A stretch of DNA of 39,448 nt, from IMG/VR virus record IMGVR_UViG_2585427754_000011; one strand, given 5' to 3'. Within the stretch, counting starts at the first letter, position 1. Each line of letters begins with the position of its first letter. This document shows positions 1 to 5,370 of the stretch, one piece after another. The DNA comes from a virus. Its lineage: Duplodnaviria > Heunggongvirae > Uroviricota > Caudoviricetes. The translations under genes were made by a program, and so were the position numbers. The notes beneath the pieces are model-generated. The model made no database searches, was not told the origin of the DNA, and worked only from the letters and a program-made list of their open reading frames with translations.

Positions 1-1053
1 TTACGGGGTAATGCCAACCGCTGCCGCCACTTTGTCGCCACTTGGCAGCGTTGCCAGAGGATTGAAACGGAGCGCCGTTTCCAGATGATCCGGTGCCAGA
101 TGTGCGTAACGCATAGTCATTTTTATATCGTGGTGTCCGAGAATTTTTTGTAAGGCCAGAATGTTTCCACCCGACATCATGAAGTGCGCCGCAAACGTAT
201 GGCGCAGAACGTGTGTGAGTTGACCGCGAGGGAGCACGATAGACGTTTTTTCCATCACGGATAAAAATTGAAAATAGCAGTCTGTGAAGAAATTGAACCC
301 ATCAAGCGCCATGATCTCTTCGTAAAGCTCTTTACTGATAGGGATGCTTCTGTTTTTCTTCCCCTTCGTTCTTACAAAGGTAATTCGGTATTTGGTCACC
401 TGTGAGCGGGTAAGATTTACGGCTTCTCGCCAGCGTGCGCCTGTGCTTAAGCATATCTTAACTACCAGTGCCAGAATTGGGTCCTGACGTTTGCAATCAG
501 CCAGTAATTCAACAATCTGCTCATGGGTAAGCCATGCCATCTCTTTTTCTGCGATGGTGAATTTTCGCATGTTCTCCAGTGGGTTCGGATACGACCATTC
601 GCCCAGGCGGGATAGTTCGCTAAAAACACTACTTAGATAGCTTTGCTCCAGGTTAATGGTGACCGGGCTTGCTCCTTTCTTCCATTTCTCGCTGAAGTAG
701 ATCTCACCTGTCAGGCGTTTATCTCGATAGTGGGCAAACATTTTAGAGGTTAGATCAGTTGCAAGGGGATTGCCCAGAGCGTCAACCATCAGCAGCAATT
801 TGTCATAGACATGCTGCCCAGCAGTCAGAGATTTACCATGTAGTTTGAACCATAGCTCAACCACGTCTTTCAGTGTTCGACGATCCACTGATTCACCCAG
901 CCAGGGCTTTGCTTCGGTTTCTTCCATCGTGTGACGCTCAAAAGCCAGTGCTTCGCCTTTGGTGGCGAATTGTTTACGCACACGACGCCCACTACGTCCG
1001 GCGGGGTAACATTCGCAAAGCCATTTTCCTGTGGTGAGTTTTCGTACAGCCAT
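1..1053 (-). CDS. int: Tyrosine integrase, P2/186 family
   Basis: Translation from the internal ATG (MAVRKLTTGKW...) resembles P2 Int N-terminus (MAIKKL...) and carries the tyrosine recombinase C-terminal region (HVLRHTFAAHFMM...GHHDIKMTMRYAHL). The longer ORF start at 1131 would abut the upstream gene. Stop codon is at 1-3. Confidence 0.9.
   Translation of the reverse strand: MAVRKLTTGKWLCECYPAGRSGRRVRKQFATKGEALAFERHTMEETEAKPWLGESVDRRTLKDVVELWFKLHGKSLTAGQHVYDKLLLMVDALGNPLATDLTSKMFAHYRDKRLTGEIYFSEKWKKGASPVTINLEQSYLSSVFSELSRLGEWSYPNPLENMRKFTIAEKEMAWLTHEQIVELLADCKRQDPILALVVKICLSTGARWREAVNLTRSQVTKYRITFVRTKGKKNRSIPISKELYEEIMALDGFNFFTDCYFQFLSVMEKTSIVLPRGQLTHVLRHTFAAHFMMSGGNILALQKILGHHDIKMTMRYAHLAPDHLETALRFNPLATLPSGDKVAAAVGITP
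19..40. repeat. Putative attL core (22-bp direct repeat shared with 36594-36615)
   Basis: cgctgccgccaCtttgtcgcca at 19-40 versus cgctgccgccaTtttgtcgcca at 36594-36615; flanking sequence diverges on both sides. The core overlaps the int 3' end. Confidence 0.55.
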
Positions 1054-1054
1054 A

Positions 1055-1077
1055 AAAAATGCCCTCCAGTGGAGAGC
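1055..1077 (-). terminator. Hairpin plus T-run between the KAP NTPase gene and int
   Basis: Minus strand reads GCTCTCC-ACT-GGAGGGC followed by ATTTTTT immediately before the int ATG; the stem contains GGAGG, which could double as the int Shine-Dalgarno. Confidence 0.4.
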
Positions 1078-1132
1078 ATTTTTACTGTATATATAACCAG
1101 TGTCAATGTATGAATTTGTATAGCCATACATA

Positions 1133-2464
1133 TCACTGAAGTAAAAAAACTTTTAAAGCATCTTTCACAATATTTGTTGGTTCACCAATACCGCCACCAC
1201 CTTTTAAAAAATGGTATTCACTCATTTCTGCCCATTGTCTTTTTATATTTTCCTCAGCAGGTAAAAGAGATGAGTTTTCAGATAAGTATTTGTAAACTAT
1301 TCCAAATATAGCATATTCATAATTATCTACATTATATTCACTTGTTTGATATGAAAATTTAGATAAACCAAACAATTTCATGATTGATTGAGCATCAACT
1401 TTATCTTCAAGAAAGTTGAGAGCTAACTCTCGGTTAAAAGTGTAGATTATTATCGCTAGAGTCCTGTAATAACAATATCCATAAATATATTTGTTGCTAA
1501 TTTTGTCGCCTGATAGTAGTTGGTATATTTCAACATATCTAGCAAGTGTTTCAACCTCACGTAATGATAATTTTCTACTTTCAATGAACTGTAAGAAAAT
1601 ATCTTCGCTGGCTTCTACTGCAGCGGTCAGCCTTTCAGATTGCTCACATAGCATCATCCAATGATTTTTGGAAGTTAAAGTGTCATTATAATTATCTTCC
1701 TTAAAGGTAACAGGAAGGCTGTATGTAAATTTTATAAATTTGTCAAGATAACGGTTGGAGTCTACAGAAGAGCCATAGATATGATTTATGGATGCTTTTA
1801 GTTGAGTTGTGTTTGCAATTAATAAAAAGTTAATGTTTTTTATATCAAAAACATGTTTTATATTTTCAATAATAGAAATGGCAAAACTAGGCTTACATCT
1901 GTCTAACTCATCTATAATTATTGTTAGTTTACTTTCTCCAGCTAATTTGGTTAGTACTTCTTTTAGAGCAAGAACGTTCTTTTGTGCCTCGATATGATCT
2001 TCTAACAGAGCCTCGATGGTTCCATCGATAGCTGAATTTGCAGCGTCTTTGATAACCTCTTCAAATTCCTCATTAATTTCATCCGCATTTTGTTTTAATA
2101 CCCAACCAGCACCAGCTTTGAGTACAGTCTTAAGTCCGAATCTGAGGGCTGGCAATGCCTTAGATATTAATTCCTTTTTTTCATCGCTATTATATAGAGC
2201 TGCAATTGCGGCCATTATTGTAAGTATGGGAGCATCGTTGTGATCTTCAGTAAAAGCATCTATATAAACTACTTTATGATTGGTCGAGTTTATTTCAATT
2301 AAGGATGCTAACTTTTTTGAAAACTCTGTTTTTCCAGTCCCCCAGTCCCCATCTATGACCATAGGTGAAACAGGAATATTAGACTCTAGCAAACTTATTA
2401 TTTTTTCTGCAATGGCTTTTCTTTTATATTCATCACGTATATCGAAAGTTATATCTGTGCTCAT
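1133..2464 (-). CDS. KAP-family P-loop NTPase (443 aa)
   Basis: Walker A GDWGTGKT and the KAP-type Walker B IIIDELDRC are both present. ATG start confirmed; AT-rich relative to flanking phage genes. Sits 13 nt downstream of the small ORF stop. Confidence 0.8.
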   Translation of the reverse strand: MSTDITFDIRDEYKRKAIAEKIISLLESNIPVSPMVIDGDWGTGKTEFSKKLASLIEINSTNHKVVYIDAFTEDHNDAPILTIMAAIAALYNSDEKKELISKALPALRFGLKTVLKAGAGWVLKQNADEINEEFEEVIKDAANSAIDGTIEALLEDHIEAQKNVLALKEVLTKLAGESKLTIIIDELDRCKPSFAISIIENIKHVFDIKNINFLLIANTTQLKASINHIYGSSVDSNRYLDKFIKFTYSLPVTFKEDNYNDTLTSKNHWMMLCEQSERLTAAVEASEDIFLQFIESRKLSLREVETLARYVEIYQLLSGDKISNKYIYGYCYYRTLAIIIYTFNRELALNFLEDKVDAQSIMKLFGLSKFSYQTSEYNVDNYEYAIFGIVYKYLSENSSLLPAEENIKRQWAEMSEYHFLKGGGGIGEPTNIVKDALKVFLLQ

Positions 2465-2477
2465 TCATATTTTCTTA

Positions 2478-2660
2478 TTATTTGATGCATGTTTTTTTGG
2501 ATTTACTGATGGTTCCATCATTGCAAACAAATTTTCCATCAGAGGTACAGTGAGAGACACCTCCCTTTTTCCCAGAACAAGGATAATTTTTAGCATAGGT
2601 AGTTAGTGGGTTTAATAACAAAGAGCATGATAAAACCACAAAAAAAAACTTACCAAGCAT
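2478..2660 (-). CDS. Small secreted Cys-rich protein (60 aa)
   Basis: N-terminal hydrophobic signal-like segment ([12 protein letters not shown]...TYA), then a ~37-aa mature part with 4 Cys. GGAGG lies 6 nt upstream of the ATG. Stop is 13 nt before the KAP NTPase ATG, suggesting an operon. Confidence 0.55.
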
Positions 2661-3390: not shown

Positions 3391-3594
3391 ATGACACCTA
3401 ACATTTCAATTACTCTGAATACACCACATGTCACAATCGAACGTTATAGCGAACTGACTGGCCTTTCTATTGATACGATTAACGACATGTTGGCTGATGG
3501 CCGACTACCTCGTCATCGTCTTCGTAAAGACAAAAAACGTGAAAAGGTAATGATTAACCTGGCTGCTCTGACTGTTGATGCTTTGTCTGCTTAA
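3391..3594 (+). CDS. apl: Apl/Cox-like small DNA-binding excision and regulatory protein
   Basis: 67-aa ORF in the position of 186 apl, between cI (divergent) and cII. Confidence 0.6.
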
Positions 3595-3658
3595 TAGACG
3601 TCTATTTTCGCAATAAGACGCTGAGTTCGATTTTGCGATAAGTTCGGAATTGAAAACC

Positions 3659-4168
3659 ATGTTTGATTACCAAGTTTCCAAACATCCACATTTTGATGAA
3701 GCCTGTCGTGCATTCGCACTGCGCCACAACCTGGTGCAGCTGGCAGGACGTGCAGGAATGAATGTGCAGATTCTGCGAAACAAGTTGAACCCTGCTCAAC
3801 CTCATTTATTAACCGCACCAGAAATTTGGCTGCTTACCGATCTGACTGAAGATTCGACGCTGGTAGATGGCTTTCTGGCTCAGATTCACTGTCTGCCATG
3901 TGTACCGATTAATGAGGTAGCAAAAGAGAAACTGCCACATTACGTCATGAGTGCAACCGCAGAGATCGGACGTGTTGCTGCAGGTGCGGTATCTGGCGAT
4001 GTAAAAACCAGTGCAGGTCGTCGTGATGCTATCAGCAGCATTAACTCTGTAACACGACTGATGGCGCTGGCTGCTGTTTCATTGCAGGCCCGTTTACAGG
4101 CTAATCCTGCGATGGCGAGTGCAGTTGATACCGTGACTGGCCTCGGTGCTTCATTCGGTTTGCTGTGA
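3659..4168 (+). CDS. cII: CII-like lysogeny establishment regulator (phage 186 CII type)
   Basis: [19 protein letters not shown]...[26 protein letters not shown] closely matches my recollection of 186 CII; start taken at the ATG at 3659. Confidence 0.85.
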
Positions 4169-4175
4169 GGTGCTT

Positions 4176-4409
4176 ATGCTGACGAAAGAACCATCATTTG
4201 CATCGCTGCTGGTAAAACAAAGTCCGGCAATGCACTACGGTCACGGCTGGATTTATTTACCTTGTGGGAAAAAGTGGCATCCAAGTTTTGAATTACAACC
4301 CCGGCAACAGGCTTACCGGGGAAGAAATAAAAAGCGATTCCTACAAAGATTTATGGTTAACGTGGCAAACAACCTGCGAACCAAGCGAAAAGTTTTTCTT
4401 GGAAGCTGA
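4176..4409 (+). CDS. Hypothetical early protein; its N-terminal coding segment is duplicated at 4996-5055
   Basis: ORF MLTKEPSFASLLVKQSPAMHYGHGW... overlaps the start of the duplicated 60-bp segment; the 3' part overlaps the antisense gene and may be non-functional. Confidence 0.3.
   Translation: MLTKEPSFASLLVKQSPAMHYGHGWIYLPCGKKWHPSFELQPRQQAYRGRNKKRFLQRFMVNVANNLRTKRKVFLGS
4193..4253. repeat. Direct repeat copy 1 (~60 bp, 2 mismatches against 4996-5055)
   Basis: atcatttgcatcgctgctggtaaaacaaagtccggcaatgcactacggtcacggctggat; weaker similarity continues ~35 bp further. Confidence 0.85.
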
Positions 4410-4815
4410 GGTTTACATCGTCAACCCGACCACAGGCAATAGCAGCTCTTTTGTAGGCAGGGTTTAACAAAGATCCGAATGTTGTGGAGTCAGAGTGATG
4501 CAAAGCTTTCAATTTTTGTGCAATGAACTGTGGAGACAATTCATCCTCGGCGTAAAGCAACTCACCATATTGTCGGCTTTGTACGCTTGCTCGTTCCGCA
4601 ATAATAGCTGGTTGCCATACAAGTTGGATTGTTGCGATTACAACAACAGGAAAAGCGAACAACCATTCCAGACCTGTATTAGCAAATACAGCTGTTCCGC
4701 TTATAAGTTGGATTGCTGTCATTAATTTATCAGCTCGACCATGGAACGTTGCTGTCATTAGTTCAAGGTAATAACAGTAGTGTAATTGGAAGTATTCGGA
4801 GCTTTGTTTAGTCAT
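4357..4815 (-). CDS. Predicted 2-TM membrane protein (152 aa), antisense to the early operon
   Basis: ATG start with AGGAA upstream; two hydrophobic stretches (LMTAIQLISGTAVFANTGL, WLFAFPVVVIATIQLVW) followed by a soluble C-terminal part. Hairpin ccccgg...ccgggg at ~4292-4316 lies downstream. Confidence 0.55.
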   Translation of the reverse strand: MTKQSSEYFQLHYCYYLELMTATFHGRADKLMTAIQLISGTAVFANTGLEWLFAFPVVVIATIQLVWQPAIIAERASVQSRQYGELLYAEDELSPQFIAQKLKALHHSDSTTFGSLLNPAYKRAAIACGRVDDVNLSFQEKLFAWFAGCLPR

Positions 4816-4824
4816 GCCGGATTC

Positions 4825-4905
4825 CTATTTCTTCTCTTGCCCCGGTTCAGGCTGAGGTGCTGGAGCCGGGCGAGGGAGTACATGAAAGTTGTCTGTTTCT
4901 GACAT
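4825..4905 (-). CDS. Pro-rich micropeptide (26 aa, MSETDNFHVLPRPAPAPQPEPGQEKK)
   Basis: Not in the ORF track (too short). ATG with GGAG 8 nt upstream; stop 9 nt before the ATG of the 2-TM gene. Confidence 0.3.
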   Translation of the reverse strand: MSETDNFHVLPRPAPAPQPEPGQEKK

Positions 4906-4995
4906 CAGTTTTCTCCTTTGAGGGGTAGATGATTGTTAGCACAAATAGTCTACCACTGAGGCACGCGCCGGGCGTGTAGAAAAATTCCCGGCACA

Positions 4996-5055
4996 ATCAT
5001 TTGCATCGCTGCTGGTAAAGCAAAGCCCGGCAATGCACTACGGTCACGGCTGGAT
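4996..5055. repeat. Direct repeat copy 2
   Basis: atcatttgcatcgctgctggtaaagcaaagcccggcaatgcactacggtcacggctggat. Confidence 0.85.
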
Positions 5056-5275
5056 CATGGGTGAGGATGGAAAACGCTGGCATCCATGTCATTCACAAGA
5101 TGAATTGCTGTCTGAATTGACCACGAGGAAACGGAGAAAGTCAAAATGTATGCAGCGGAAAGTGAAGTGGTTTATCAGTTTCGTTACAGAGGGGAGAGTT
5201 ATTCAGTACCTGAAGATGATTTGCTCTGTTGTTATCCGTCGTTGTCGGGCGATGGCAGTTACTTTTTCACGCTAA
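5033..5275 (+). CDS. Hypothetical early protein, paralogous start to 4176-4409
   Basis: MHYGHGWIMGEDGKRWHP... versus MHYGHGWIYLPCGKKWHP... in the first copy; overlaps the next ORF in another frame. Confidence 0.3.
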   Translation: MHYGHGWIMGEDGKRWHPCHSQDELLSELTTRKRRKSKCMQRKVKWFISFVTEGRVIQYLKMICSVVIRRCRAMAVTFSR

Positions 5276-5370
5276 AAGATGGGACGTTTTTACGGGGAGA
5301 GCAGGTTAAAGAGACGATACGAAAAAATGTATCTCCTCTTGAACGTTACCGTAATAACAAACAACGATAG
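5146..5370 (+). CDS. Hypothetical early protein (74 aa)
   Basis: ATG with AGGAAACGGAGAAAG upstream. Confidence 0.4.
   Translation: MYAAESEVVYQFRYRGESYSVPEDDLLCCYPSLSGDGSYFFTLKDGTFLRGEQVKETIRKNVSPLERYRNNKQR

Follow-up and report, generated by a model that had tools for sequence, protein, structure and literature searches.

A conserved antisense pair of a proline-rich micropeptide and a remote SLATT-like membrane protein in 186/Fels-2-like prophages: a candidate exclusion or abortive-infection module

Introduction

Why does the early lytic operon of a prophage carry a pair of genes on its opposite strand, enclosed by two copies of the same gene start? The question is raised by positions 4176-5275 of the IMG/VR record IMGVR_UViG_2585427754_000011 (Caudoviricetes), a stretch of 39,448 nucleotides (nt) that is referred to in full as the window and that is a 186/Fels-2-like (Peduoviridae) prophage. 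A preliminary description, made from the sequence alone, had noted a direct repeat enclosing two antisense open reading frames (ORFs) and had proposed that the enclosed segment was swapped in by recombination within the duplicated gene start. Here, we describe this segment as a cassette with two conserved genes, a 26-amino acid (aa) proline-rich micro-ORF and a gene for a 152-aa protein with two transmembrane (TM) helices. We estimate at roughly even odds (probability about 0.5) that the two form a minimal membrane-acting exclusion or abortive-infection module with the micropeptide as its regulator. The repeat itself appears to have a separate origin, in the joining of two phage lineages.

Anatomy and conservation of the antisense cassette

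The cassette comprises the following features of the window:

4299-4321, minus strand: terminator-like GC-rich hairpin of 9 pairs (6 G-C), from the terminator scan
4357-4815, minus strand: 152-aa SLATT-like 2TM protein, WP_000166365.1 ("hypothetical"); phrog_6315, E 4e-76
4825-4905, minus strand: 26-aa proline-rich micro-ORF, MSETDNFHVLPRPAPAPQPEPGQEKK, conserved in frame with a dN/dS signature
4947-4955, minus strand: extended -10 promoter-like element TGGTAGACT (TGnTAnAnT); the micro-ORF ATG lies 41 nt downstream
4962-4992, no strand: conserved upstream block in the alignment of 8 loci, with the palindrome CACGCGCCGGGCGTG (4962-4976), an A/T run, and CCCGGC (4987-4992)

Both ORFs lie where the preliminary description had placed them, the shorter one with the good ribosome binding site that it had claimed (AAGGAG, 7 nt before the ATG). 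The 152-aa gene starts 9 nt downstream, with a Shine-Dalgarno (SD) sequence (TAGGA) that overlaps the micro-ORF stop codon; the micro-ORF is unannotated in RefSeq E. coli genomes. The hairpin predicted to follow the 152-aa gene is indeed terminator-like on the minus strand, at 4299-4321 rather than at ~4292-4316. It is located 36 nt past the stop codon, inside the coding sequence of fil77, a gene of the other strand described below, and is conserved in Fels-2 in a three-way alignment of the window, vB_EcoM-813R9, and Fels-2 (alignment A1).

Upstream of the micro-ORF, GTGGTA-A-T is invariant across the 8 aligned loci, the extended -10 element reading TGGTAGACT in E. coli and Salmonella, TGGTATATT in Yersinia (TATATT), and TGGTAAAAT in Pectobacterium (TAAAAT). 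Conservation begins abruptly ~95 nt upstream of the micro-ORF ATG, which in the window is 4-5 nt inside the junction discussed below, and has its other end at the hairpin. The block at 4962-4992, whose palindrome is GC-rich, is possibly an operator or UP-like region, and we propose a cassette promoter on the basis of the conserved extended -10 element. Pasteurellaceae cassettes have a consensus TTGTAT-17-TATAAT promoter. In 2 of these loci (L009 and L012), ~40-90 nt upstream of the micro-ORF, the -10 element lies between direct repeats TGCGACTACA that resemble operator sites of a regulator. With its extended -10 promoter-like element, 2 coupled ORFs, and hairpin, the cassette looks like a genuine transcription unit.

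The dN/dS ratios (Nei-Gojobori) indicate that both antisense ORFs are real genes under strong purifying selection: the micro-ORF reaches 0.05-0.11 in its own frame versus >1 in the other two, and the 152-aa gene 0.04-0.05. Together with the conservation across the family, these values rule out a spurious ORF in either case.

A proline-rich micropeptide accompanies the membrane protein

The micro-ORF is kept in frame in Salmonella, Citrobacter, Klebsiella, Enterobacter, Yersinia, Pectobacterium, and Pasteurellaceae. Besides that of the window, the following versions of the peptide were read:

Fels-2: MSDSDNFHVLPRPAPAPKPEPGQDKK
Yersinia: MADTEDFHVLHRPAPKPQPEPNEDKK
Pectobacterium: MADREDFHVLHRPAPAPAPVPEPSQDKK, with a 6-nt insertion
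Haemophilus: MKIEKEERSHVPPRPTPQPKPR
Pasteurella: MERKRDGRGHVPPRPTPPPKPR
Locus L026: MKREREERGHIPPKPTPPPKPR
Providencia: …KPIRPTPPPPSTP…
Phage EKP1: …TPTPPPPT…
Sodalis: …QPKPVTPPSQ…

The window, Yersinia, Pectobacterium, and Pasteurellaceae peptides have an H-V-x-x-R-P-x-P-x-P-x-P core in common, with partner proteins that are only ~24% identical. A small hydrophilic proline-rich ORF precedes the SLATT-like gene in 16 of the 17 genomic contexts examined. The remaining one, in Phytobacter (L014), is ambiguous; there, a single 176-aa gene is called in which the small ORF and the SLATT-like gene seem to be joined by fusion or a frameshift. The gap between the micro-ORF and the downstream ATG is 9 nt in the window, Fels-2, Yersinia, and Pectobacterium, where the downstream SD sequence overlaps the stop codon, and mostly 9-10 nt across the family (range 5-16). 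An SD/stop overlap (TAGGA, TAAGGA, or TGAGGA) was found in the window and in the Yersinia, Pectobacterium, and Pasteurellaceae loci that were read.

This arrangement raises the question of whether the micro-ORF acts through its peptide or as a cis-acting leader. In a leader, ribosomes pausing at the proline tract or at the stop codon would occlude or expose the overlapping SD sequence, so that translation of the effector would track the translation state of the host (EF-P, prolyl-tRNA, phage-induced shut-off) and the peptide would have no function in trans. The SD/stop overlap and the mostly 9-10-nt gaps fit such a leader, as do the PPP or PPPP runs of several versions (Pasteurella, Providencia, EKP1), which are classic EF-P-dependent stall motifs; moreover, a motif that is kept while its partner diverges suggests a conserved target such as the ribosome. 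However, the peptides range from 20 to 54 aa and the distance from the proline tract to the stop codon varies (1, 5, or 10 residues), the PxPxP tract of the Enterobacterial versions is a weak stall motif, and an acidic N-terminus and conserved residues other than proline (F-H-V-L, R) point to a peptide that folds or binds a partner. Furthermore, no conserved RNA structure was detected in the 5' untranslated region and micro-ORF leader (z = +0.47, with an unfavourable covariation term), and a structured RNA attenuator at this position was rejected on these grounds. Weighing the variable distance and the conserved non-proline residues against the overlap and the PPP runs, we lean toward a function in trans; the latter features keep the leader model alive, although we consider it improbable.

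The PRP motif and the proline content of the micropeptides (23-32%) are reminiscent of proline-rich antimicrobial peptides (PrAMPs) such as pyrrhocoricin, oncocin, and apidaecin, whose antimicrobial activity has DnaK or the 70S ribosome as its intracellular target, the pyrrhocoricin core YLPRPTPP being resembled by LPRPAPAP in the window and PPRPTPPPKP in Pasteurellaceae. PrAMPs are delimited by at least 25% proline and a net charge of at least +1 (PMC7736402, Box 1). The window peptide falls short of both values (6/26 = 23% proline, net charge -1), and the Pasteurellaceae peptides (27-32% proline, charge +3 to +5) would pass both. Unlike PrAMPs, the window micropeptide would be an intracellular product, and it shows neither signal nor export features. 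The likeness concerns a short low-complexity motif that may have arisen by chance, and we treat it as a lead only. The pair also resembles type II toxin-antitoxin systems, in which a small upstream ORF is translationally coupled to a downstream, potentially toxic protein on mobile elements, but a 26-aa proline-rich peptide without a DNA-binding domain is unlike known antitoxins.

The 152-aa protein is a remote relative of SLATT proteins

The 2 TM helices that had been predicted for the 152-aa protein are supported by hydropathy peaks at about residues 31-47 and 50-73 and by the AlphaFold (AF2) model, whose predicted local distance difference test score (pLDDT) rose from 67 to 93.9 with a 127-sequence alignment. 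The model has helices at 3-45, 50-67/69-88, 95-106, 114-127, and 138-146, which form a long helical hairpin holding both hydrophobic segments and then a small helical C-terminal domain (~75 aa). The model, the short inter-helix loop, and the description of the SLATT superfamily suggest an N-in/C-in topology; the charge counts are balanced and do not decide it. Within the gene, 4598-4640 and 4682-4724 form a 43-nt repeat with 72% identity at an 84-nt offset, which aligns TM2 with TM1 (ATIQLVWQPAIIA versus TAIQLISGTAVFA) and may reflect an ancient helix duplication or chance.

SLATT proteins have been described as 2 N-terminal TM helices with a helical cytoplasmic C-terminal region (PMC9812332), or as having 2-3 TM helices (PMC9226505). 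They are predicted pore-forming effectors of CBASS, DRT, and RADAR systems, and for most of them pore or membrane activity is still only predicted (PMC9226505; bioRxiv 10.64898/2026.04.29.721553). The hydropathy peaks, the AF2 helices, and the enrichment of SLATT proteins among the top BFVD matches of the model agree with this architecture, the family sharing the paired N-terminal TM helices and the helical C-terminal region.

The preliminary description had named SLATT-like 2TM effectors as a possible outcome of a remote homology search, a guess that held at the family level and below threshold, but not for the window protein on its own. With NCBIfam, SLATT_4 was matched by 41 of the 127 family members (best E 2.2e-5) and SLATT_1 by 9, other families by at most 4. 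A Haemophilus member aligns with residues 29-105 to SLATT_4 positions 25-106, corresponding to the 2TM core (E 1.1e-5). The family consensus matched SLATT_4 with E 3.5e-7 (30 bits against a cutoff of 55), SLATT_1 with 1.8e-4, and SLATT_5 with 8e-3; with Pfam, SLATT_4 was again the top match (E 0.015). In PADLOC, the CBASS "2TM effector" model was matched by 10 members and the reverse transcriptase (RT)-associated SLATT models by 4. Finally, the best BFVD matches in the fold search were giant-virus SLATT proteins (probability 0.9-1.0, TM-score 0.5-0.62). These 4 independent lines (NCBIfam, Pfam, PADLOC, and fold) are all sub-threshold and therefore point to a remote SLATT-like family outside the current models, closest to SLATT_4 and with no curated member.

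Among solved structures, the model had no match, and a sequence search of the PDB with the family profile returned designed helical proteins only. A UniRef "DUF4231" label on a Salmonella family member was not reproduced with current Pfam. In PADLOC-DB v2, neither the window 152-aa protein nor the 26-aa peptide nor the fil77 product had a match at E<=1.

The pair occurs in prophages and temperate phages

While a word-indexed search returned only 152-aa Enterobacterales homologs, an exhaustive profile search yielded 170 clusters at 50% identity, nearly all of 146-180 aa with full-length matches; for 91 clusters, the match reached E<=1e-10. A 164-aa relative (P0226) is common in E. coli. All 17 contexts are prophages or temperate phages, in which the pair occupies 3 kinds of site:

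Site 1: after cII in P2/186-like phages
Site 2: immunity/early-left region of lambdoid Pasteurellaceae and Providencia phages, beside GmrSD+HEPN, GAPS4-like, or Abi_2 genes
Site 3: gap between the Q antiterminator and the holin (Phytobacter, Photorhabdus, Sodalis, phage EKP1)

In every context with readable annotation, the pair is on the strand opposite the flanking phage genes on at least one side, usually both. The family thus resembles SLATT proteins in occurring in mobile conflict-type loci, as prophage morons next to defence genes, and differs from them in that it was found in prophages only, and in its pairing with a tiny proline-rich ORF, and its lack of SMODS, SLOG, RT, RADAR, or CBASS partners.

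A few records that touch the family should be noted. In GenBank, ORFs are annotated on the wrong strand across the SLATT-like gene of Fels-2 (L002, 2341-2745) and of Yersinia phage vB_YenM_42.18 (L023, 2812-3477). A 1.5-kb contig labeled "Parachlamydiaceae" metagenome-assembled genome (MAG; L018) carries an 89%-identical cassette with DUF5347; this is almost certainly prophage DNA of enterobacterial origin that was mis-binned. In Elizabethkingia phage EKP1 (L025), the Q-cassette-holin region and the upstream ORF (MSESKRQVTGDSMPKGL…) match the Phytobacter prophage (L014), and EKP1 looks enterobacterial-lambdoid despite its stated Bacteroidota host.

A candidate membrane-acting exclusion or abortive-infection module

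We propose that the interval is an autonomous leftward moron, antisense within the early lytic operon, that would consist of its own extended -10 promoter-like element, the 26-aa micropeptide, the translationally coupled 152-aa inner-membrane protein, and the terminator-like hairpin. Expression in the lysogen is predicted because the cassette runs parallel to the lysogenic genes (cI, int) and opposes transcription from pR; at prophage induction, convergent early transcription would shut it down. The SLATT-like hairpin would be the effector and, when triggered, would compromise the inner membrane. The co-translated micropeptide would act as its regulator, either as an antitoxin-like inhibitor or as a sensor in trans, and less likely as a cis-acting leader. 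With a suicide or exclusion effector, silencing on induction could plausibly serve self-immunity.

Lambda SieB and RexB, P22 SieA/SieB, and HK97 gp15 are prophage membrane morons that act in superinfection exclusion or abortive infection. Like the 152-aa protein, they are small inner-membrane proteins in or beside lytic operons; they have their own lysogen promoters, as we expect for the cassette. In contrast, no sequence similarity between them and the 152-aa protein was detected, the latter having no functional match in Pfam or PHROG, and none of them is known to have a conserved proline-rich micropeptide partner. A SieB-like identity found no Pfam support, and the PANGU NAP-effector system, also considered, was dismissed as unrelated.

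Several results weigh against the proposed module. The window 152-aa protein matched none of the curated SLATT hidden Markov models (HMMs) of Pfam and NCBIfam even at E<=10, and the consensus of its own Enterobacterales subfamily gave no SLATT match either. All SLATT matches of the family remain below the curated cutoffs of the models that define membership (Pfam SLATT_1-6, fungal, and DUF4231; NCBIfam NF03363x); since the window protein is undetectable alone, its link to SLATT is therefore transitive, through the family profile. In none of the 17 contexts was a SMODS, SLOG, CBASS, DRT/RT, or RADAR neighbor present in the same transcription unit. A standard two-hexamer sigma-70 promoter scan of the cassette gave zero sites, the -35 region being poor. 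A search of the literature for STM2734 and WP_000166365 yielded no mention of the gene, and prophage morons can serve functions other than defence.

The last point leads to an alternative in which the pair is a lysogenic-conversion or prophage-housekeeping membrane factor, acting for example on ion balance, on stress tolerance, or on the physiology of the host envelope, or reducing spontaneous induction or lysis. Stable retention across many genera under purifying selection would suit such a factor, as would the position of some members in the gap between Q and holin, a site also used by fitness and virulence morons, and the window protein neither matches a validated defence-system protein nor has a sensor partner. 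However, the kinship of the family to SLATT effectors known from conflict systems, its frequent adjacency to GmrSD+HEPN, GAPS4-like, and Abi_2 genes in lambdoid immunity regions, and the order of a small upstream ORF followed by a membrane protein, which is typical of toxin-antitoxin and abortive-infection pairs, speak against this alternative. We regard a conversion or housekeeping role as unlikely, and both the membrane-damaging activity and the defence role of the proposed module as plausible assignments.

A more specific form of the exclusion or abortive-infection module, which we put forward tentatively and hold to be rather unlikely as stated, is a minimal two-component prophage immunity system in which a SLATT-like pore stands alone, with a proline-rich micropeptide of 20-50 aa as its sensor or safety catch. 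The PRP-type core hints at one variant, in which the peptide would engage a conserved host machine, the ribosome exit tunnel or DnaK, and signal to the membrane effector that a phage has shut off translation. The way in which SLATT effectors become activated is an open question, as stated explicitly for DRT10 (bioRxiv 10.64898/2026.04.29.721553). If the two-component scheme were true, the pair would provide the first example of a SLATT effector under the control of a micropeptide rather than of a nucleotide signal or a reverse-transcriptase product. The family offers the simplest possible SLATT setting, with one small membrane protein, one micropeptide, and no enzyme partner, in a genetically tractable form carried by common prophages of E. 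coli, Salmonella, Klebsiella, Yersinia, and Pasteurellaceae. Furthermore, it reveals a systematic annotation gap, with the micro-ORF absent from RefSeq, the SLATT-like gene miscalled in 2 phage records, and the family missing from Pfam and PADLOC.

The direct repeat derives from two fil alleles

The repeat had been described as 60 bp with 2 mismatches. It is real but extends over 63 nt, 60 of which are identical, at a spacing of 803 (repeat search). The features concerned are:

4176-4409, plus strand: complete fil, 77-aa Fels-2-type allele (fil77), early lytic operon; PF10893, phrog_816
4190-4252, plus strand: repeat copy 1, from within codon 5 to within codon 26 of fil77
4993-5055, plus strand: repeat copy 2, with the cassette/truncated fil98 junction at 4996/4997 (…CACAA followed by TCATTT…)
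4997-5275, plus strand: 5'-truncated fil, 98-aa-type allele (fil98), codons 7-98; phrog_32377, tblastn

Both copies encode SFASLLVKQSPAMHYGHGW, in line with the claim of a common protein start; copy 1 lies in a complete gene, whereas copy 2 has no start codon until Met19. A match of 60/63 within 3.5 kb is far beyond chance and is caused by shared coding sequence: the repeat is the conserved 5' coding region of 2 diverged alleles of fil, the cell-division inhibitor gene of phage 186. The fil77 product matches Pfam PF10893 (Phage_186_Fil) with E 7.8e-24 and 83.6 bits (cutoff 25) over profile positions 1-51 of 56, as well as phrog_816 ("cell division inhibitor"), and is 78% identical to Fels-2 Fil. 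It follows cII directly, as in 813R9, Fels-2, and NGF1, and, over its final 53 nt, the gene overlaps tail to tail with the 152-aa gene of the opposite strand. The truncated fil98 lacks codons 1-6 and begins at Ser7 (TCA, 4997); its first possible start, Met19 at 5033, has no obvious SD sequence. It matches phrog_32377 over positions 19-98 of 98 (E 1.8e-55), tblastn covers query residues 7-98, and RefSeq (strain NGF1) annotates 5033-5275 as a Fil family protein. From 5146 to 5275, ~43 codons of the fil98 frame overlap the start of orf74 (5146-5370; phrog_4312, E 2e-52) in a different frame, so that either the overlap is real or the fil98 tail is non-functional read-through.

In alignment A1, the gene orders are as follows:

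vB_EcoM-813R9: cII, fil98, orf74, DUF5347; exactly 803 bp shorter than the window
Fels-2: cII, fil77, cassette, DUF5347; no second fil and no orf74
Window: cII, fil77, cassette, truncated fil98, orf74, DUF5347

The conserved sequence of the cassette stops at …CCCGGCACAA, after which Fels-2 continues with the DUF5347 leader and the window with TCATTT (fil98 codon 7), with a microhomology of at most 1 nt. Fels-2 diverges exactly after CACAA, and 813R9 resumes at TCATTT. As had been anticipated, the inter-repeat segment is missing in most relatives, the exact 803-bp absence being found in many Klebsiella, Salmonella, and E. coli phages besides vB_EcoM-813R9. Among 5,426 complete E. coli genomes, a match to the region was found in 1,239 and the full arrangement in 40; among the carriers listed, the best matches are ~99% identical, which suggests a single event. 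In a tblastn survey, the double-fil form occurred in Escherichia only (window, NGF1, E1V33) and the single-fil form in Citrobacter, Klebsiella, Enterobacter, and Salmonella. The cassette is present without the repeat in prophages of Salmonella (Fels-2), Citrobacter, Klebsiella, Enterobacter, Yersinia, and Pectobacterium, and in Yersinia it abuts cII directly, without any fil.

These comparisons indicate that the repeat is a lineage-specific scar of an illegitimate join at 4996/4997, a non-homologous point at which a left arm with fil77 and the cassette met a right arm with fil98 and orf74, leaving behind 2 partial copies of the conserved fil 5' end. Because 6 other genera carry the cassette without the repeat, and Yersinia carries it without any fil, the repeat is neither a terminus of the cassette nor a part of the module, and the proposal that the cassette was swapped in through a duplicated gene start is not supported. 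The same comparison largely refutes a model in which the 63-nt repeats are the functional ends of a mobile cassette, as target duplications or recombination sites. An 803-bp unit precisely missing in many relatives would be expected of such an element, and 63-bp repeats could allow RecA-dependent excision. At 3 positions that differ between the copies, the fil 5' end of 813R9 (L001) reads copy1-copy1-copy2, a single-nucleotide polymorphism pattern that is compatible with a deletion between the repeats and is explained equally well by ordinary polymorphism. However, the repeat is fil coding sequence with weaker in-register similarity extending beyond it (4265-4286 versus 5068-5089, 77%), it has no associated integrase, transposase, or inverted repeats, and the near-identity of the listed E. 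coli carriers suggests one event, making functional mobile ends very improbable. Once formed, the repeat could still mediate loss of the cassette through homologous recombination. No foreign base composition of the cassette was seen. The repeat is thus of minor interest, as a clear case of ordinary mosaicism that joined 2 phage lineages.

Setting in the prophage genome

Left of the cassette interval, the window contains:

1-1131, minus strand: int
1133-2464, minus strand: KAP-family NTPase, 443 aa
2676-3332, minus strand: cI
3391-3594, plus strand: apl
3650-4168, plus strand: cII (PF06892)

To the right of cII, the repeat and cassette interval is followed by DUF5347, DUF2732, a TraR/DksA-like gene, dam, and replication gene A. 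Among complete genomes, the closest are E. coli chromosomes, e.g., NGF1 and NC101 (99.3% identity). Between int and cI, a P2-like defence hotspot (1133-2660, minus strand) holds the KAP-family NTPase and a 60-aa cysteine-rich ORF with a signal peptide; in relatives, the same spot is occupied by Kiwa (KwaA/KwaB), AAA_15+DUF4435 (PARIS-like), or SMC-like ATPases. In Yersinia 186-like prophages (L004-L007, 6395-8279), 2 or 3 tandem CI-repressor paralogs (Phage_CI_repr + Phage_CI_C) are located upstream of int.

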